Source: a phage
DNA length: 64,000 nt
Direction: 5' to 3' (one strand)
Sequence record: OZ346222.1
Numbering within the stretch: the first letter of the stretch is position 1; each line of letters begins with the position of its first letter. The notes beneath the pieces were generated by a model that saw nothing but the letters and a program-made list of their open reading frames with translations, searched no databases and was not told the DNA's origin. The position numbers and the translations under genes were made by a program. Below are positions 2,814-18,354 of the stretch, piece by piece.

Positions 2814-3854
2814 ATGTCAAAACCTAGTTTTCCATTAGAGATTTGGGCAGAGGAGGATCAGGTTCTGCCTAACACCCACAGACAGAACAGGCTACGCCCG
2901 ATTGATGATTTGTGGAGAAAAGGTTGGGATCTTGGTCAAAAGCCCTCATGTGAAGAACTTAACTATATTTTCAATATGCTCGGGACTTGGGCAAAATACA
3001 TCGCTGACGAGCAGATCCCCGCTCAAGAAGGCCGTTATCTGGTACGTGATAATAACTTGAGTGATCTTTTGAACATTCCTGTTGCCCGTAGAAACCTTGG
3101 GATTATTACTAAGGAAGAGGCAGACGCCAGGTATGTAAAAGTTACAGGTGATACAATGACAGGCCCATTGGGTTTGCAACGTATCAACTTTAAAGCTGCC
3201 GAGTCAGATAAGGCTTGGATAGAGACAACTATTGGCCCAGATAAGACAACTCTCGACTTTGGGTTAAGTGATAATACCGGGTCGTTTGATGATGGTGGTA
3301 CATCTACAGTGGATGCGTTCCGTTGGAGATTCCAGCCAACTCAGCCGGATATTAATCCAGAGTTCACTTTGATGTACCTTAACGCGATCACGGCTAACCG
3401 TGCGCTGTTGAAAGTGGTAGGCAATGTTGAAGTTGTCGATAACATGAGGTGCAATAACCTTACTATCAGCAATACAGCGACATTCACCAACTGTAATGTG
3501 GCTAGTCAGTTGACGGCTGGGTCAGTGTATGTTAATGGTGGTGCAAGTTGTGACAGTATGGTTGTAAGAAGCCAGCACTGTGTTGTCGGTAACAGAAATG
3601 TGGTTCGCTCTGTGAACGGAGTGACGGCTAACGGTAACGGTGATGTAACGATCACTATCCCGCAGACAGGTGTGCAAGACATCAGAATCGGTGCAAGACT
3701 TGTGGACGGAGTTTCTGAATCTCCAATCCGCAACGGCTACGTTGTCACAGGCTGGCATTTCGGTGACAAAAAAGAGATGCGTGGTTCAACCTACTGGGCA
3801 GGACCTTTACAAAAACTTGTAAATGGTCAATGGATCACTGTTAATTATGCATAG
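2814..3854 (+). CDS. tail fiber protein (paralog A)
   Basis: 346 aa; GDTMTGPL tail-fibre motif, LNAITANRA, NRNVVRSVNG..NG.VTI repeats, C-terminus QKLVNGQWITVNYA shared with the 4866..5912 paralog; RBS AGGAGA upstream. Confidence 0.7.
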   Translation: MSKPSFPLEIWAEEDQVLPNTHRQNRLRPIDDLWRKGWDLGQKPSCEELNYIFNMLGTWAKYIADEQIPAQEGRYLVRDNNLSDLLNIPVARRNLGIITKEEADARYVKVTGDTMTGPLGLQRINFKAAESDKAWIETTIGPDKTTLDFGLSDNTGSFDDGGTSTVDAFRWRFQPTQPDINPEFTLMYLNAITANRALLKVVGNVEVVDNMRCNNLTISNTATFTNCNVASQLTAGSVYVNGGASCDSMVVRSQHCVVGNRNVVRSVNGVTANGNGDVTITIPQTGVQDIRIGARLVDGVSESPIRNGYVVTGWHFGDKKEMRGSTYWAGPLQKLVNGQWITVNYA

Positions 3855-4865: not shown

Positions 4866-5912
4866 GTGATGACTAAACCAGTTATCCCTCTTGATATTTG
4901 GGCCAATCAGGATGTTGTGCTTGAAAATACGGGAGAGTTGAATAAGTCTCAACCAAAAAAAGAAGAGAGATTGAAAGGTTGGGATATGACACAAAGAGTG
5001 GCATGTGAAGTTGTTAACTTTGAACTTCACATGCTTTCTGCGTGGTTGAAGCATTTAACAGAAGATGTTGTCCCAGGATGGGATAATAGATTCTTAAGGG
5101 TCACTAATAATCTAGCAGACGTTCCAGACAAAGCTGCTGCACGTCAAGTTCTCAATGTATACTCACCTGAAGAAATGGACGATCTATATGTTGACAAGTC
5201 TGGAGACATAATGACTCAGACTCAAACTTTAGGTCTTCAAAGAATCGAGTTTGCATCTGCGTCAACAGACAGTGCGGCAATATATACCACCATAACTCCA
5301 GACAAGACGACGATGGATTTCTGGATTATGGACAACATCGGTGGTGCTGACGGCACAGACCTTGATGATCCTTCTCACCAAATAGATGGGTTCCGTTGGA
5401 GATTTCAACCTTCTGGTGGGCAGCCTGTGTTTTCAGCTATGAAGCTCAATGCTATAACTGCCAACCGTGCAAGACTGGCTATCCAAGGAAATCTTGAATG
5501 CAACGATGCAAAAAGTTCCTCTGCAAATGCCAATGCGGTCACGATACCAAGAGCCACTGTTAATGGACAACAATCCTGCGGAAGCGCTCAAATAGGTGGA
5601 AGAGTTGATTGTAACGATGAAACCGTCAGGGGCCAATATGCAACAGTTGGTGGAAGAAACGTGGTCCGCAGGGTAAATGGTAACGGCGCAGACAGTAGTG
5701 GTAACCTTACTATTCCTATGCCTAGCAGAGGGGTTGATGATGTAAGGATAGCAAACCGTTTCAAAACCACCTACAGAGAGTCAAGAGTCTACCCTGGACA
5801 TGTGATGTGCTCTGGTAACTACGCTTATAAACACCCTTATCAAGGTGATTACTGGACAGGTGCTATCCAAAAACTTGTAAATGGTCAATGGATCACTATA
5901 TCTTATGCTTAA
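4866..5912 (+). CDS. tail fiber protein (paralog B)
   Basis: 348 aa; same architecture as 2814..3854 (DGFRWRFQP, LNAITANRA, GRNVVRRVNGNG, C-terminal QKLVNGQWITISYA) with a divergent central region. Confidence 0.7.
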   Translation: MMTKPVIPLDIWANQDVVLENTGELNKSQPKKEERLKGWDMTQRVACEVVNFELHMLSAWLKHLTEDVVPGWDNRFLRVTNNLADVPDKAAARQVLNVYSPEEMDDLYVDKSGDIMTQTQTLGLQRIEFASASTDSAAIYTTITPDKTTMDFWIMDNIGGADGTDLDDPSHQIDGFRWRFQPSGGQPVFSAMKLNAITANRARLAIQGNLECNDAKSSSANANAVTIPRATVNGQQSCGSAQIGGRVDCNDETVRGQYATVGGRNVVRRVNGNGADSSGNLTIPMPSRGVDDVRIANRFKTTYRESRVYPGHVMCSGNYAYKHPYQGDYWTGAIQKLVNGQWITISYA

Positions 5913-7949: not shown

Positions 7950-7982
7950 TCTAACCGCTCCTGACGGGGCGGTTTTCTTATC
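7950..7982 (+). terminator. rho-independent terminator
   Basis: CCGCTCC-TGAC-GGGGCGG hairpin (one G.U pair) followed by TTTTCTTAT directly after the 6200..7945 stop. Confidence 0.5.
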
Positions 7983-7993
7983 TGGAGAACACA

Positions 7994-10900
7994 ATGCTTC
8001 CAATCCCTTTGCTAAAACTTGGTCGTCATTTCCTCGATAAGAGGGGTGGAATTAAGGAACTTGCTGTTCTGTCATACCCAATAGACAACAGTGATGGTAC
8101 AAGCAACACAGTATCCTATGTAAATAGCTTGGCTATACTTTTTGATGATGGTCAGCTTAATATTACGGGCTATAACAAGTTCGGGGAGTGTCGCACTGGG
8201 GATCGTAACCCTATAAACTACCCAAGCGAAACAGCCTGGAATGTTGATCATGTGTGGAGAGCAGACCGTGCGTTTGTGATCCGGACTTTTGATAACCAGT
8301 TTTTCTACATCGGCTGCACTGCAGGTCTTATCGGATCCACTGCGGCAGGCGGTAATGATGTTTGCGTAAACGAGTGGACACCTCTTCCGGAACAGATTGT
8401 TAAAGGGTTGCACCTTGACACCCACCCAGAGCGCCTTATTGAGGTGATGGGTGGTATTAACAACACTGTCTGGGTTATTGCAGAGGCAGAAGGCACTGGC
8501 ATACTTAAACTATATGGATCTGGTAACAACACCTACGGATCTTTGCATGTAGATAAAAATCAGCATGCAACCCCTGTAAAGATTGGTGAGACATCGGAAA
8601 ATCCGGAAACAGGTCCTTGGAAAAACCCAAGCATCAACTGCGAGGTGCATGACAACTCTGTTATTTTCGGTGGTCCTAGAGGCTTCTGGATTGCTGGATA
8701 CGACTTTCTAAGAAATAACAGTAGAAACGACCTTGTTTGGCCTCCTGTGCAGATTACTCGTAACGATTTGAGGGGCATTCCTGCAGATGAAGAGTGGAAA
8801 GGGTTTATGTGCGGTCCTAACGGGGCAATAATTGCCACACAGAGGATGCACAAACCAAATGACCAGCAGCTTGTTAACGTATTCTACGGGCAAGACGTTT
8901 GGGGAGATGACACGTGGCGTTCCTTAAATATCACCTACACCCATGAGGTGATAATGGCTCGTGGATACGGCACAAGTGGCATTTTCTTCAATAATGGCAC
9001 TAAACAGTATCGTGGATTCTCTCGCAACTTGTGTAATGATATTGGTGCACAATCTGCAAACAATAGCCCTAGGGCTAATTTTATCCACTATCAGGCTCTT
9101 GCTACAGCTAAATATGTTGAGCAACGCCTGCCAGTTAGCTGGACAGAGAGTGTTTATTTCCAAGGCATCCACAGGGAAGGTTTCTTAGGAACCTTTACTG
9201 TTGTTAATGGCAAACTTTGGTGGTCAGGCATCCCAAGGGGGAGTTTTGCAGGATCTAACAACCTCTTTGGCGGCAGACTTAACAGCCAAGGGTTCACAGA
9301 GATTCCGGAGAATTGGTATAAAAATGTCCCGGTAGATAGCTGGGGTATCGAAGACATCTTTGATGTCAATGGTGTGAGCAATGTTAGCAACATTTACATC
9401 GGAGATACTGTCAAGATGAAATTGAAACCTCAGCCGGAGGGTGCTACGTTCATTATTGACAAGATTGAGTTGGTAAATGCTGCAGGCACTGTTGTTACAG
9501 ATGCAAACTATCAGTTCTCCACTAACTGGAACCATGGTGGTGCTAACGAAGTTGTGGTCACCCAGTATAACCGTAACATCAACAGACGTGGTTTGTATTC
9601 TATCAAGATCACCTACCATGACAAGCATGGCACTGGAAGAACCTATACGACAAGAACTTTGAACTGGAACACTATAGTTCCTGCGTATCCGTCCAACGGC
9701 AAGTGGCATACCGTTGGTAGAAACAAGCAGTTCCATGTTAACGATACTGTATACTTTGGGCTGAATGGGACCCAGCCTGCAGTAGAAGGGGATACATCGT
9801 ATATGGTCAGACTCCACAGAATGGATGCTGGATCAGTCACTTATGATGTGACCCAAGAGATCTACGATCAAAGACGTGCCACGTATGACAATATTGTAAA
9901 AACACAAGCCTTGTGGGAGTTCAATCCTAATGGCAAGGGTGGTAAAATGTTGCAGGTTAATGAGCAGAACGGAACGTCGTTGACTGTTCACGAACACCCA
10001 GACCCTTGGCCTGATCCTGGAAAACCTCGCCCGGGAGCTCGTACACTGAAAATTGTCAGCCATGATGCAGGATATTTCGGAATACGCTGGGAAGCTACAG
10101 TAAGATATGTCGACGGGACAACAAACAACATAGGGATTACACTTGGCGGCACTAGTGAAGATAACTCGCTGAAAATTGCCTACACGCCCAGAGGTATCTC
10201 TATTGATAGTATGGATGTTGTTCGCAATGGCTACGGCGATGTGAATGTCAAAGTTACTCTTGGCGAACATCTTGGTGGGGAAAGGATCATCATGTATACC
10301 TTTGATCATGATCCACGCACCAATGGAACTTATGCAAATCAGGCATGGAGTTACCTGATAAATGCACCTGAGCCGAATACTAAAGAGTTCTACTATGGTA
10401 TGAAGCGAGATGTGTGCAAGAAAACAGGAACACATGACTGGATTGCTATCTGCGTTAAAGATGAGCGCACAGCTTGGGATGAGCCTGTTAACAGATGGTT
10501 CATAGGTATTCCTACCAGAAGTGATAAGTATGTCGCAGAATATATTGTATGCATGGGCGGTACCAACCTAAACATGTGTTGGAACGAAGATGTAAACAAA
10601 TACTCTGATTATGACTATATGAGGGATTACTCTTGTAATTTGTGGTTTAACCAAACTACAGGTTACCCTCCAAGACAGGCGAGAGTAAACCCTGCAATCT
10701 TCACAGACACGCAGGTTTTCTTGACAAAACAGGCCAACGAGGTTCAGACCTTCAAGAATAAATACGCTCCTAACAAGTGGTTCTACAACTGTTACGGCGC
10801 ATTTTTCTGGGGACCTGGTGAGTTACCTGGTGGGGGATCTTGCTTGAATGAGGCAACTTACGCAAGTGACTACATCATGGGGCAGGTCAAGAAGTATAAG

Positions 10901-13630
10901 ATAATCCCCGGTCCTGAGACTTTGGGCAATGCCGTTGACCCTTATATCATCATGACTGCACTGAGATCAAACATGGATGGGACATCCATGTCCATGCAAA
11001 TTCCGGTAACAAACGGATACAAACGTGTTGTGATGATCATTAAGTGCGACCTGATAGGTAAACAAGTTCTTGCAGAAAACGGGACATCCACACATCCTTT
11101 TGAGATCGCTCTGCACTATCAGTTTGCTGACTCACCTTTTGCAGGGGATAAGAGAATATCTGATACAGACGCACAGCGTTGTAAGAAAGTATTGTTGGGT
11201 GCAGGTTGGTGGTGGTATGAGTTTGATTTAACAGACAAATTCACCGACACGTCTAAAGTTGTAACAGGACTTCGTCTAGACCTTGGCGAGAACATGCACA
11301 AAGCTGTTTGTGATGGCACCTATGGTGACCCTACAATATACCTAAAATATGTTTCTTTTGAGCATCCGGAAGATGTTGTCTACGGTCCAAAACTGAGATT
11401 GTTTGGCAGCTGGATTGCAAAAGATAGGGTAGGCATGGGTAAGAAGGTAAGAGGGCTCTTGGTTGATGCAGGAACAGAAGACATGCTGGTTAATGCAGTG
11501 TGGCCTGAATTACCTGGGACTCAGTGGGACAACTCAGCCAAATCTATAAACTGGTTTAACATTCATAGGGCCATGTGGACCACTAACTGCTACTTGTGGA
11601 GAGAGCTTAACGATCAGGCCTTTGGATTCAGCGATGGTAGAAGGATGGCGATCATTTGCTGGACAACACTGCAAAGATGTTATGACCATGACTATGAGAT
11701 TGGGGGCAGGGCATGGAAAAATATCAGGGATAGAATCATAACCAATTTTGCAGACGACAACGGTGGTGGAGCACATAACTTTGGCACAAGCCGACTCATC
11801 CATTTGAACGGATCCTCAGCCTACAAGAAAGAAGGTTACTCTGGGTCTATGATCGAGTGGGGTCTGGTGAAAGATGCTCGCGTATTGATGGGCCAGCAAC
11901 TTGCTGCCGCAATAGGTCCCAGCGCAGTGCAGTCGGTTAAACCAGCGTGGTTCGATATTCCATTGTGGTCACCCGGAACACCGGGAACTGCTGCAATCAA
12001 CCCTACCACTGGGGATCTAGAAATCTCCTGGGAGGACTTGAAGCAGGTCGGTGGTTGGGACAAAACAGGGTACCAGGTTCAGTGGTGGAGAGCTGATGGA
12101 TCTTTAGCTGCTGATGAGTTTGTTAAGGACAATTTCTACACTATGTCCTCTGCAAAAGCACAGCAATTATTTGGTCAGGCAACTCCGTCAACGATCACCA
12201 TGTCTATGTGCTGTAAAGACAACAGGACTGGAGCTTTGGGGCCAAGGGTTGCTAAAGTTTTCTCAGGTATTAAATGGAATCTACCTGTCCAAAGTATTTC
12301 ATGGAAGCAAATAGGTGATAACAAGCTGCTGGTTACCCCTGCCTGTCAGTTCAACGCAACTCTTAACGTTGATCCTGCTGTTGCGGCAAACTCAGCTAAA
12401 GCTTCTGACTTCTCTGTGTCTAACACTGCTATGGCAGATGTGAGGAAGATTGACACGCTGAACGCCAGAATTACCTGTAAAAACACTTATGGCACATTCC
12501 AGATCATCAACAACTTCACAGATGCTGATTCTAAGGTAGTGAGGACAGCAAGCCAGACTTTGAGTTTAGGAACTCTGGCCTATGCGGCCCTAATCACTGA
12601 ACAGTCGGCAACACTCCAAGGAGGTGGTGTAGGCAAGTCCATTACAACACCTGTGTGGAAGCCAAATGAGTGGGTTGTGTTTGATTTGACTGTGGACTTC
12701 TCCAGCGATAATAACTGGACATGGGTAAGGAATTGTTTGTCACAGTTGATGGGCGGTCCAAGCTCCGTTAGTGATAGTCACGACTCTACTGACCCGAGTG
12801 TGTTCCAGGTAGGTAAAACTCACCCAGAGACTGGAGAAACGTTGCCTGACAGGAAGTATGCTTTGGTTTGCATCTCTTACGGGAAGGCAGATGTCACCTT
12901 CTCAGGGACACACACTTATAACGGAACCTACAACTTCTCAAGGAAGTATAGTCTCAAAGCAGGGAACATTATAGACGAGGTTGGTGTGCTGTATAATCCG
13001 GGCAACGGCATAGGGATTGTTGGTGGTAAACTGCAGATGCAGGAACCTTCTATTACCCCTTCCAACGTATCCGGGATTAGAAAGACTTGGGAAAGTAGTA
13101 ATACCAACATTGCAACAGTGGATGCCACCACAGGACTGGTAACATTTAAAGCTACTGGGAATGTCACCATAAAGTTTGTAGTTACAGATGATGCAGGGCG
13201 CAAAACGTCTTCAACATCTTTTACTGTCAAACAGATGGCACCACAGTGGAGAATGTGGATAGGTACAGCAACAAACGGGGCATACCCTAATCCGGCAGGT
13301 ACTTCTGGTATGAAGACTTTCTCTACAAGCAAACCGATGGAGTACGGCAGCGGTCCTAAGGTAGGGCAGATGGTGTACTTTGGTGCGTATATTCCTGAAA
13401 TTATAGGGCTTCCGAGAAGTCAGCTTCAGTTGCTGTTTGGGGCTGGTGTTGACGATCTTGCCACTTTCGGGTATAGCGACAACATCGAGGCTGCAAGGAG
13501 TTCAGGATGGGTAGGGTTCAGAATGGAGTCTGGAAAGGAAGGCAGGATTCTAGGGACAGCCTCTATAGGTGTTATGTTCCCTGGTGACCAGCAGTATCGT
13601 CTAGAAGCCTACGCAACCTTTTCTCGTTAA
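7994..13630 (+). CDS. giant virion-associated protein with C-terminal Ig-like (Big_2-type) domain; putative adhesin/fiber
   Basis: 1878-aa uninterrupted ORF; Trp/Cys/Asn/Gly/Thr-rich, not the Ala/helix-rich profile of a tape measure; segment ATVDATTGLVTFKATGNVTIKFVVTDDAGRKTSSTSFTV matches bacterial Ig-like group 2 pattern. Confidence 0.55.
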   Translation: MLPIPLLKLGRHFLDKRGGIKELAVLSYPIDNSDGTSNTVSYVNSLAILFDDGQLNITGYNKFGECRTGDRNPINYPSETAWNVDHVWRADRAFVIRTFDNQFFYIGCTAGLIGSTAAGGNDVCVNEWTPLPEQIVKGLHLDTHPERLIEVMGGINNTVWVIAEAEGTGILKLYGSGNNTYGSLHVDKNQHATPVKIGETSENPETGPWKNPSINCEVHDNSVIFGGPRGFWIAGYDFLRNNSRNDLVWPPVQITRNDLRGIPADEEWKGFMCGPNGAIIATQRMHKPNDQQLVNVFYGQDVWGDDTWRSLNITYTHEVIMARGYGTSGIFFNNGTKQYRGFSRNLCNDIGAQSANNSPRANFIHYQALATAKYVEQRLPVSWTESVYFQGIHREGFLGTFTVVNGKLWWSGIPRGSFAGSNNLFGGRLNSQGFTEIPENWYKNVPVDSWGIEDIFDVNGVSNVSNIYIGDTVKMKLKPQPEGATFIIDKIELVNAAGTVVTDANYQFSTNWNHGGANEVVVTQYNRNINRRGLYSIKITYHDKHGTGRTYTTRTLNWNTIVPAYPSNGKWHTVGRNKQFHVNDTVYFGLNGTQPAVEGDTSYMVRLHRMDAGSVTYDVTQEIYDQRRATYDNIVKTQALWEFNPNGKGGKMLQVNEQNGTSLTVHEHPDPWPDPGKPRPGARTLKIVSHDAGYFGIRWEATVRYVDGTTNNIGITLGGTSEDNSLKIAYTPRGISIDSMDVVRNGYGDVNVKVTLGEHLGGERIIMYTFDHDPRTNGTYANQAWSYLINAPEPNTKEFYYGMKRDVCKKTGTHDWIAICVKDERTAWDEPVNRWFIGIPTRSDKYVAEYIVCMGGTNLNMCWNEDVNKYSDYDYMRDYSCNLWFNQTTGYPPRQARVNPAIFTDTQVFLTKQANEVQTFKNKYAPNKWFYNCYGAFFWGPGELPGGGSCLNEATYASDYIMGQVKKYKIIPGPETLGNAVDPYIIMTALRSNMDGTSMSMQIPVTNGYKRVVMIIKCDLIGKQVLAENGTSTHPFEIALHYQFADSPFAGDKRISDTDAQRCKKVLLGAGWWWYEFDLTDKFTDTSKVVTGLRLDLGENMHKAVCDGTYGDPTIYLKYVSFEHPEDVVYGPKLRLFGSWIAKDRVGMGKKVRGLLVDAGTEDMLVNAVWPELPGTQWDNSAKSINWFNIHRAMWTTNCYLWRELNDQAFGFSDGRRMAIICWTTLQRCYDHDYEIGGRAWKNIRDRIITNFADDNGGGAHNFGTSRLIHLNGSSAYKKEGYSGSMIEWGLVKDARVLMGQQLAAAIGPSAVQSVKPAWFDIPLWSPGTPGTAAINPTTGDLEISWEDLKQVGGWDKTGYQVQWWRADGSLAADEFVKDNFYTMSSAKAQQLFGQATPSTITMSMCCKDNRTGALGPRVAKVFSGIKWNLPVQSISWKQIGDNKLLVTPACQFNATLNVDPAVAANSAKASDFSVSNTAMADVRKIDTLNARITCKNTYGTFQIINNFTDADSKVVRTASQTLSLGTLAYAALITEQSATLQGGGVGKSITTPVWKPNEWVVFDLTVDFSSDNNWTWVRNCLSQLMGGPSSVSDSHDSTDPSVFQVGKTHPETGETLPDRKYALVCISYGKADVTFSGTHTYNGTYNFSRKYSLKAGNIIDEVGVLYNPGNGIGIVGGKLQMQEPSITPSNVSGIRKTWESSNTNIATVDATTGLVTFKATGNVTIKFVVTDDAGRKTSSTSFTVKQMAPQWRMWIGTATNGAYPNPAGTSGMKTFSTSKPMEYGSGPKVGQMVYFGAYIPEIIGLPRSQLQLLFGAGVDDLATFGYSDNIEAARSSGWVGFRMESGKEGRILGTASIGVMFPGDQQYRLEAYATFSR

Positions 13631-13639
13631 CAAGGGGGT

Positions 13640-13675
13640 AAATAAAAAGGGGCCAAACGGCCCCTTTCTTTTTAT
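13640..13675. terminator. bidirectional rho-independent terminator between convergent gene blocks
   Basis: AAAAAGGGGCC-AAAC-GGCCCCTTTCTTTTT: perfect GC hairpin with A-tract upstream and T-tract downstream, between + strand stop 13630 and - strand stop 13678. Confidence 0.7.
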
Positions 13676-17564: not shown

Positions 17565-17828
17565 TCAGAAACCCTCTAAAAAGCTCTTGTAGAAAACAAT
17601 CTCAGTATCCACACCAGTCACAATCTTGTCGTTCCTGATTTCATCGGTAAGATAGGTGTCAAAACGCAGAACCTGTGTGGTGTTGTCACACATCCACTCA
17701 GCTGTGACCATTGCGAAAATCTTAGCATCTTCATTATCTGGTGTGAATGTTACCACCTCACCGCACTTAAACTTTTCGATAGGCTGAGTGTTAGCTTTCG
17801 GTTCTGCGATAGTGATTTTTGTGGTCAT
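17565..17828 (-). CDS. small protein, tandem paralog 3 of 3
   Basis: 87 aa; same length and shared pattern (basic N-terminus, C/PG-x-VV core) as the two upstream copies; junction overlaps. Confidence 0.5.
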   Translation of the reverse strand: MTTKITIAEPKANTQPIEKFKCGEVVTFTPDNEDAKIFAMVTAEWMCDNTTQVLRFDTYLTDEIRNDKIVTGVDTEIVFYKSFLEGF

Positions 17829-18091
17829 TATTCTCCTCCTTCTTTTGAATAGCTTGTCTCTCCAAGGATGGTAATTTTGGTGTCAAGCTCTGTAACTTTC
17901 ATGTTTGGCGGCAGATCGTACAACTCATTATTTTCTAAATCGAACCCCCACACACAATGTTCTCCTGTTTTGACAATCATAACTATGTTTTGAATGCCGT
18001 CTCCGTCGCAACTTACCACGGTCCCACACGGAAAACTGTCTGCACGCTTTTTGTTCTTCACCTTAGAATTGAATACAATGCTGGTAGCCAT
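17828..18091 (-). CDS. small protein, tandem paralog 2 of 3
   Basis: 87 aa; FPCGTVVSCDGDG core; ATG overlaps neighbour stop. Confidence 0.5.
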   Translation of the reverse strand: MATSIVFNSKVKNKKRADSFPCGTVVSCDGDGIQNIVMIVKTGEHCVWGFDLENNELYDLPPNMKVTELDTKITILGETSYSKEGGE

Positions 18092-18354
18092 TATTGTTCC
18101 TCCACCATAACTTCGCCAAGAATTTCTATGCAGGCATCCATTTCTGTAACAACCAAACTGTGAGGTAGTTCTACAAACACCTTTCTGAACAGGTCAAATA
18201 CCCCAACATATATGTTTGCAGGATGTGATTTTACAACAAGTGCTGTATTCACATCCCCAAGTTCATCAACAAACATCACCACAGTGCCCGGAGCTACTGA
18301 GGACAGATACTTCTTAGTTTTACGGTTTGATGCAAATTTTAACTCTGTTGCCAT
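18091..18354 (-). CDS. small protein, tandem paralog 1 of 3
   Basis: 87 aa; VAPGTVVMFVDELGD core; ATG overlaps neighbour stop. Confidence 0.5.
   Translation of the reverse strand: MATELKFASNRKTKKYLSSVAPGTVVMFVDELGDVNTALVVKSHPANIYVGVFDLFRKVFVELPHSLVVTEMDACIEILGEVMVEEQ

Follow-up and report, generated by a model that had tools for sequence, protein, structure and literature searches.

The window analysed here is a 64,000-nucleotide (nt) stretch of phage DNA (OZ346222.1), and our subject is one plus-strand open reading frame (ORF) within it, positions 7994-13630. Read from a single ATG, it specifies a protein of 208.5 kDa and pI 6.6, hereafter window gp27. On sequence grounds, the ORF is the gp27-type giant tail protein of a Vequintavirus (rV5-like coliphage), an already known gene whose function we infer. 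PHROG 15684 spans the protein from residue 1 to residue 1878 of its 1878 amino acids (aa) with 4505 bits. The rV5 counterpart, YP_002003529, is annotated as an 'Ig-like domain-containing protein', and bas48_0041 and bas54_0041 of the BASEL phages as a 'lateral tail fiber protein with intimin domain'; the orthology of bas54_0041 was verified. Megablast with the gene returned 121 phage records, all of rV5-like phages and 108 of them nearly full length, with DNA identities of ~80% to >99% (most 90-99%); the figure for the window gp27 gene is 97% identity at 100% coverage. Remoter relatives, down to 40% identity, lie on metagenomic contigs with the same gene order, so the family seems confined to rV5-like phages. 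The gene is ordinary and known, being already catalogued, annotated and deposited in more than 100 genomes, and it represents no new system. Fifteen GenBank 'Campylobacter phage' records of the MG0656xx series (e.g. MG065654, MG065666; host C. jejuni) are ~95% identical where listed, and other records of that series match phi92-like or phAPEC8-like genes; their host labels look wrong. An NCBI 'hypothetical protein, partial [Eggerthella lenta]' (P0018), which matches part of the N-terminal region (window 7994-9433) with 97% identity, is probably coliphage contamination of an Eggerthella lenta assembly.

Pairwise Nei-Gojobori comparisons with three orthologs gave ratios of nonsynonymous to synonymous divergence (dN/dS) of 0.06-0.10 overall and of 0.03-0.27 in every region where they were computable. 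These values establish a real coding gene, not a chance ORF, under purifying selection along its whole length, in agreement with an earlier note made from the sequence of this stretch (the original prediction), which had read the locus as a single ORF of 1878 aa. The dS against the orthologs jumps from one segment to the next, within a range of 0 to about 1.5. RudolfGeigy has the same N-terminal 480 aa, and the remainder is nearest to Murica and CarlMeissner; together, the segmental dS and the mixed nearest relatives imply recombination inside the gene. Across 16 family members, conservation is highest over aa 1-450, intermediate over aa 800-1440, and collapses after ~aa 1440, beyond which most of the remote members have another C-terminal part. 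The extreme C-terminus is allelic: the MaxBurger ortholog is 53-77% identical over aa 1741-1878 and at least 90% identical over aa 301-1740, the last 439 aa of 116 Vequintavirus records fall mainly into two identity bands (at least 95%, and 80-90%), and the tip shows a dN of 0.25 with dS saturated.

The gene adjoins the tail-fibre genes, as the original prediction had placed it. The ORFs 5' of it are orthologs of rV5 gp35 to gp28, in the order of rV5 and of bas48_0033 to 0040, and their products comprise a baseplate protein, an NCTSP_N/TIM-barrel fibre, two short fibres, a fibre chaperone and the gp28 fibre. Genes 3' of gp27 converge on it, and the position of last gene in the fibre module is held in rV5, the BASEL phages, divergent metagenomic relatives, phAPEC8, PVP-SE1 and Av-05. 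Between the stop of the 5' fibre gene (7945) and the gp27 ribosome-binding site sits a hairpin followed by a T-run (Table 1), a probable leaky intrinsic terminator or attenuator. A hairpin and T-run of unrelated sequence occupy the same place in rV5, the divergent rV5-like contig L006, phAPEC8, PVP-SE1, phi92 and Av-05, and the phAPEC8 record annotates a terminator there, before gp086. Since a promoter would not fit between the hairpin and the ribosome-binding site, gp27 is most likely made by read-through of this element and at a reduced level; the conserved position of the hairpin in six lineages likewise suggests low gp27 expression. Downstream of the gene, the rV5 record carries a terminator annotation for each strand at the spot matching the second hairpin in Table 1.

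In composition, window gp27 is rich in Trp (3.0%, 2.8 times the Swiss-Prot mean) and in Asn, Thr, Tyr and Gly (1.4-1.7 times), and poor in Ala, Leu and Glu. The abundance of Trp, Asn, Gly and Thr noted in the original prediction thus stands; the abundance of Cys does not, at 1.33% or 0.96 times the Swiss-Prot mean (other long ORFs of the window, 1.79%). The original prediction had also noted an absence of long Ala-rich helical repeats; tandem repeats were not found in the DNA of the gene. AlphaFold models were obtained for aa 1-800 and aa 781-1878, with mean predicted local distance difference test (pLDDT) scores of 41.9 and 52, respectively. The alignments behind them were shallow (17 rows) because word-indexed protein searches brought up nothing but family members or fragments for the whole protein, for aa 790-1440 and for aa 1-480. 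In these low-confidence models, DSSP assigned ~5% helix to aa 1-800 and ~14% to aa 781-1878, ~10% overall, with mostly short strands.

Table 1. Coordinates of the gp27 gene, its flanking elements and the segments of its product in the window.
Feature	Position	Strand	Remarks
GC-rich hairpin, then T-run	7953..7974	+	Terminator scan; dG -16.7 kcal/mol, z -3.4
GGAG Shine-Dalgarno motif	7984..7987	+	7 nt 5' of ATG; sequence reading
gp27 coding sequence, 1,878 aa	7994..13630	+	Ortholog of rV5 gp27, bas48_0041 and bas54_0041; PHROG 15684
N-terminal peptide MLPIPLLKL...	7994..8041	+	Motif M[LFY]PIP[LIC][LF]
RCC1-like beta-propeller, aa ~25-445	8066..9328	+	Most conserved part of the family
Beta-rich region, aa 450-800	9341..10393	+	AlphaFold strands; more variable than the propeller
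Region without detectable relatives, aa 801-965	10394..10888	+	Invariant GGTN and WGPGE; pLDDT <35
Beta jelly roll resembling a carbohydrate-binding module, aa ~966-1123	10889..11362	+	
Helix-rich conserved module, aa ~1125-1325	11366..11968	+	Invariant GTEDMLV, NWFNxHRAMW, CWxxLxRCY..EIGG and EGYxGSMIEWG
FN3-like domain, aa ~1326-1425	11969..12268	+	Pfam fn3 E 0.13 (weak); pLDDT 58-80, strands
Two beta-sandwich Ig-like domains, aa ~1500-1660	12491..12973	+	
Big_2 Ig-like domain, aa ~1672-1756	13007..13261	+	Pfam match aa 1682-1733; pLDDT 82-93
Allelic C-terminal tip, aa ~1757-1878	13262..13627	+	Candidate specificity determinant
Terminator hairpin closing the tail-fibre operon	13646..13667	.	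Terminator scan; dG -18.7 kcal/mol

The protein opens with a short MxPIP motif that is common to phAPEC8 gp086, PVP-SE1 gp40, phi92 gp152, Av-05 gp106 and a divergent rV5-like contig. The domains that follow it differ among these last-gene proteins of the fibre module, and the peptide may be an anchor for attachment to the virion. For the propeller, Pfam with curated thresholds gave WD40_RLD (PF25390) at E 4e-5 and RCC1_2 at E 0.012, both below cut-off; WD40_RLD matched 12 of the 16 family members, every one below cut-off. An hhalign comparison aligned aa 1-492 with aa 1-449 of phAPEC8 gp086 (probability 99.7%, E 7e-26), and gp086 itself matches WD40_RLD at 6e-11 and RCC1 (PF00415) with 24.0 bits against a cut-off of 21.7. 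Self-comparison of the propeller region by hhalign revealed no significant internal repeat, probably owing to too little alignment diversity, and sequence and profile searches of the PDB returned nothing for aa 1-450. The aa 1-800 model is too poor for propeller blades to show. In the related phage W70, stand-alone RCC1-domain proteins are virion components by mass spectrometry (PMC11370258).

Downstream of the propeller, strands were modelled at aa 450-560 and 735-800 (pLDDT 45-73), with poor confidence over the rest of aa 450-800; this region probably consists of Ig-like beta-sandwich domains. An exhaustive HMMER search with aa 790-1440 against 1.84 billion representatives matched, outside the family, only FN3-like sequences at aa ~1322-1390. 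We considered whether GGTN (aa 851-863) and WGPGE (aa 937-943) could be blocks I and III of an SGNH domain split by the jelly roll. This idea was dropped, as the hhalign partner of block III is GTED at aa 1160-1163 and the module of N4-type proteins comes in two tandem copies, with no insertion.

The C-terminal part is a string of Ig-like domains, of which Big_2 (PF02368) exceeds its Pfam cut-off of 22.8 bits (E 4e-8; 33.5 bits, or 38.1 bits for the segment alone). It lies where the original prediction had located a Big_2-like domain, near residue 1700; the Pfam matches to WD40_RLD and RCC1_2 were below cut-off and that to fn3 was weak. It was also the only part of window gp27 matched in the PDB sequence and profile searches, where intimin 1e5u aligned at aa 1687-1735 (E 0.003). 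NCBIfam intimin_all reached 22.7 bits against a cut-off of 1400, over aa 1696-1734 only, and other parts of intimin found no match in Pfam or NCBIfam; the 'intimin' label thus goes back to ~40-50 residues of one Ig domain. A protein 96% identical to window gp27 (P0001) carries a precomputed annotation that lists Pfam PF26918.1 beside Big_2; PF26918.1 was absent from our own Pfam scans of window gp27 and its family. With Foldseek, the Ig-like part matched NUP210, Sap, the S-layer proteins SbsB and SbsC, cadherins and a tail protein of phage SU10 in the PDB, and Ig-bearing tail and head proteins, Hoc and PVP-SE1 gp40 in BFVD. Overall, the confidently modelled parts match strings of Ig domains (S-layer proteins, cadherins, intimin, phage Ig decorations) and jelly rolls of carbohydrate-binding modules (CBMs).

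The helix-rich module connects window gp27, in steps, to the receptor-binding protein of phage N4. BLASTP aligned aa 1219-1419 with aa 103-288 of phi92 gp153 (E 6e-8), and hhalign matched the module to Av-05 gp106 (E 4e-5, probability 69.5%). A tblastn search with phi92 gp153 against all phage records recovered a Vequintavirus gp27 ortholog (6e-4), N4 gp65 (5e-6) and gp65-like proteins of Achromobacter phages, some of them N4-like, annotated 'tail sheath and receptor binding protein' (down to 3e-17). Residues 129-281 of phi92 gp153 align with aa 912-1063 of N4 gp65 at E 6e-12, and Av-05 gp106 matches N4 gp65 at 8e-16 and the gp65-like protein of Achromobacter phage phiAxp-2 at 2e-24. In N4-type sheath proteins the gp153-type module is present twice.

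Another gene of the cluster also has a counterpart in N4 gp65. The product of ORF 729-2798 (+; 690 aa), the rV5 gp34 ortholog, matches NCTSP_N (E 8e-13) and a complete TIM-barrel_NCTSP (E 4e-80), which are the N-terminal domains of N4 gp65-type sheath proteins; two genes of the fibre cluster therefore share different pieces of N4 gp65. The same product has a Calx-beta-like stretch. Kinship between the central module of gp27 and this TIM barrel was rejected, as BLASTP gave nothing meaningful. Further along the window, three consecutive head-to-tail ORFs of exactly 87 aa each (17565-18354, minus strand) match bas48_0052 to 0054, three hypothetical genes of 264 nt, in position and size, and look like a tandem triplication. 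On a divergent rV5-like metagenomic contig, a 369-aa protein with Pfam YadA_anchor, the membrane anchor of trimeric autotransporters and unusual in a lytic phage, is encoded just 3' of the gp27 homolog (L007 17189-18298, minus strand).

Published work bears on gp27 in several ways. First, mass spectrometry of rV5 virions lists it with 3 peptides, 9 spectra and 3.1% coverage (PMC3606486 Table S5); no further proteome of a Vequintavirus in the narrow sense was found in the literature. [quoted passage not shown] The same report describes some lateral fibre genes as conditionally essential on clinical isolates (10.1101/2025.11.20.689424). Third, the papers cited here report that infection of K-12 requires the NGR glycan, bound via a deacetylase-domain fibre (phi92 Gp142-type), and the lipopolysaccharide (LPS) core, bound via short fibres; by annotation, the counterparts in the window are ORF 729-2798 for the former and ORFs 2814-3854 and 4866-5912 for the latter. 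The BASEL paper noted moderate allelic variation in the gp27-type gene and called the assignment of fibres to genes unclear (PMC8594841).

Taken together, a model for gp27 emerges, to which we assign a probability of roughly 0.6: an accessory tail adhesin or host-range fibre of low copy number, in which binding-type domains follow one another along a single chain with an N-terminal anchor and a swappable tip. Transcribed last in the late tail-fibre operon, gp27 would be expressed in small amounts by read-through of the hairpin. The MxPIP peptide, perhaps with the RCC1-like propeller, would dock the protein on the baseplate or fibre network, and the remainder would form a single-chain, beads-on-a-string arm of beta-sandwiches, the CBM-like jelly roll, the helix-rich module with FN3, and Ig-like domains. 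With this arm the protein could extend into the polysaccharide layer and attach to glycans by weak, multivalent contacts, the allelic tip tuning the binding to particular strains. The receptors essential on K-12 would be read by other proteins of the cluster (NGR by the deacetylase-domain fibre, the LPS core by the short fibres), and gp27 would come into play only with certain natural hosts or surfaces. These steps build on the observed gene identity, synteny, domain matches and purifying selection, and on the published dispensability on K-12.

Beside the identity and position of the gene, several lines of evidence support this model: i) attachment to the virion is favoured by the common MxPIP peptide, the homology of aa 1-492 to the phAPEC8 'tail protein' gp086, the RCC1 proteins of W70 and the rV5 mass spectrometry; ii) a role in specificity is favoured by the allelic tip and the dS mosaic along the gene; iii) an accessory role is favoured by the transposon insertions that bas54_0041 tolerates on K-12; iv) folds of the binding type are favoured by the Big_2 score and by the sequence link to phi92 gp153, Av-05 gp106 and N4-type gp65; and v) low expression is favoured by the hairpin with T-run kept in place in six lineages. 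As far as sequence analysis reaches, the adhesin-like character advanced in the original prediction fits the last-gene position in the fibre module, the Ig and jelly-roll matches and the allelic tip.

Several observations weigh against the model. The poor structure models leave about half of window gp27 without a reliable fold (aa 200-450, 560-735, 781-965, 1125-1330 and 1430-1515). The gp27 peptides in the rV5 data are poor, two having Sp ranks of 9 and 14 and none being fully tryptic (PMC3606486). In the cryo-electron microscopy (cryo-EM) report on Bas49 and Bas54, only three baseplate-near fibres are resolved for nine annotated fibre genes (PMC12143355). The hairpin at 7953-7974 could stabilise the mRNA upstream of it instead of attenuating transcription. 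As for the link to N4, direct BLASTP of window gp27 against N4 gp65 gave nothing at E <1, and part of the stretch shared with gp65 is a promiscuous FN3-like domain.

A more specific version of the adhesin model is possible, and we hold it only tentatively. It makes gp27 a receptor-binding arm like N4 gp65, made of one chain, on a contractile-tailed phage, anchored by the MxPIP peptide and propeller, with a dead esterase-like module, the jelly roll and tip acting as lectins, and a copy number set via a read-through terminator conserved in at least five genera. N4 gp65 is a modular receptor-binding protein of 10 domains, present in six copies, some of which can swing off the tail (PMC13434306). 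If this version were true, the family would record a stepwise accretion of domains from the 202 aa of phi92 gp152 to the 1,878 aa of window gp27, gp27 would represent a non-trimeric class of myovirus host-range determinants, and it might explain unassigned fibre densities in rV5-type and phi92-type phages.

Two alternatives, both improbable to about the same degree, give the protein another task. In one, gp27 is an enzymatic, tailspike-like protein in which aa ~800-1325 is an active carbohydrate esterase or depolymerase presented by the Ig and CBM-type domains. The relatives phi92 gp153 and Av-05 gp106 do match Pfam SASA (PF03629; sialate O-acetylesterase, SGNH fold), weakly and below the curated cut-off (E 0.008 and 0.0035, respectively). 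The central module is the richest in invariant motifs outside the propeller, including a GTED that resembles SGNH block III (GxND), and neighbouring fibre genes of the cluster carry glycan-processing domains. Window gp27 itself matched no SASA or SGNH esterase family, and no active enzyme domain of any kind, in Pfam or NCBIfam, even at E 10, and the exhaustive HMMER search described above yielded no enzyme family. In the hhalign alignment, which is of low confidence at the catalytic positions, neither the block I nucleophile (LGAGW in the window family opposite GGDN) nor the block V His (replaced by a His-less segment opposite RIHY) is kept. With low confidence, we read aa ~1125-1325 as a non-catalytic, esterase-like derivative.

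The other of these two alternatives holds that gp27 is a Hoc- or pb10-type decoration on the capsid or tail tube, whose Ig domains hold the virion to mucus or environmental glycans and not to a host receptor. PHROG 215, 'structural protein with Ig domain' (head and packaging), matches aa 1592-1877, and a gene dispensable in the laboratory would suit such a role. Set against this, the gene always closes the tail-fibre operon and is not part of the head module, its N-terminal region is homologous to annotated tail proteins, its allelic tip varies in a manner typical of host-specific recognition, and rV5 already has a head decoration protein, gp61, that is abundant in the mass-spectrometry data.

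Less probable still is a canonical homotrimeric lateral tail fibre, one of the three seen by cryo-EM. The BASEL annotation given above points this way, and phi92-type and rV5-type phages show three sets of fibres, of which fibre II of phi92 has no assignment (PMC8594841, PMC13450770). Coiled coil, triple beta-helix, beta-solenoid, collar and S74 or other intramolecular chaperone were not detected by Pfam, PHROGs, NCBIfam or model secondary structure, about half of the chain being confidently modelled; propeller, Ig, FN3 and jelly-roll domains characteristically occur in single-chain proteins; N4 gp65, the closest relative whose structure has been solved, is modular, consists of a single chain and pairs with gp64 in a one-to-one ratio; and infective virions form without the gene. 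That gp27 is not in the virion at all keeps a small remainder of the probability. A tail tape measure, which the original prediction had rightly argued against and for which size alone speaks, is refuted by synteny, since the 778-aa rV5 gp49 sits between the tail chaperone and baseplate hub genes, 22 genes from gp27, and is further contradicted by a predicted helix content of ~10% with no tape-measure-like helices in the segment-wise, low-confidence models, by the paucity of Ala, Leu and Glu, by the lack of a match to any tape-measure family and by the dispensability of the gene.

rV5-like phages are among the E. coli phages most often isolated, and therapy and biocontrol are candidate uses for them. 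A large set of fibres has been credited with their broad host recognition, and gp27 is their largest protein, under strong selection. The domain map, the module in common with N4 gp65 and the allelic tip define concrete fragments to express and swap.

Among known systems, the rV5 gp27 group is the closest: its members are 1,875-1,878 aa long, collinear with window gp27 end to end, and share its position as last gene of the fibre module and its flanking terminators. Window gp27 differs from these orthologs only by allelic changes, its copy being a mosaic. In sister genera, phAPEC8 gp086 (891 aa), PVP-SE1 gp40 (604 aa), phi92 gp152 and gp153, and Av-05 gp106 (647 aa) are the last-gene products of the fibre module, with the same position, MxPIP peptide and 5' hairpin. 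Of the blocks in common, gp086 and gp40 have the RCC1-like propeller, all of the sister proteins have Big_2, and phi92 gp153 and Av-05 gp106 have the gp153-type module with FN3. Unlike these shorter proteins, window gp27 joins all of the blocks in one chain and adds ~900 aa in the form of aa 450-1120 together with the Ig string and tip at the C-terminus. Within the sister genera, phi92 gp152 corresponds to aa 1-16 of phAPEC8 gp086 joined to aa 411-587, with the propeller deleted. The adjacent phi92 gp153 (pair at L009 7321-8983) is annotated without a ribosome-binding site, starts at GTG (Val) and sets in midway through the SASA-like module; gp152 and gp153 together resemble what is left of a longer gene.

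N4 gp65 (PDB 9lc0, 9YF4), the non-contractile tail sheath of its phage, is, like window gp27, a large chain of domains, and it serves host recognition. The two share a homologous module, reached through gp153 and Av-05 gp106, and the NGR glycan is used by both phage groups. They differ in that window gp27 lacks the NCTSP_N and TIM-barrel domains that define gp65, which lie instead in ORF 729-2798, and in that gp65 wraps the tail of a podovirus, whereas the phage of the window, a myovirus, has a contractile sheath. The Ig fold, and the stringing of several such domains, link window gp27 with the phage decoration domains of T4 Hoc, lambda gpV (C-terminal domain), T5 pb6 and T5 pb10; Hoc-type proteins, unlike window gp27, are small and capsid-borne. 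With the Big_2 adhesins (intimin, invasin, Lig proteins and S-layer proteins), window gp27 has in common the Big_2/Ig fold and the arrangement of domains in strings. To these comparisons our analysis adds a domain map, the common N-terminal motif, the conserved 5' hairpin, the indirect link to N4 gp65 and a picture of domain accretion.

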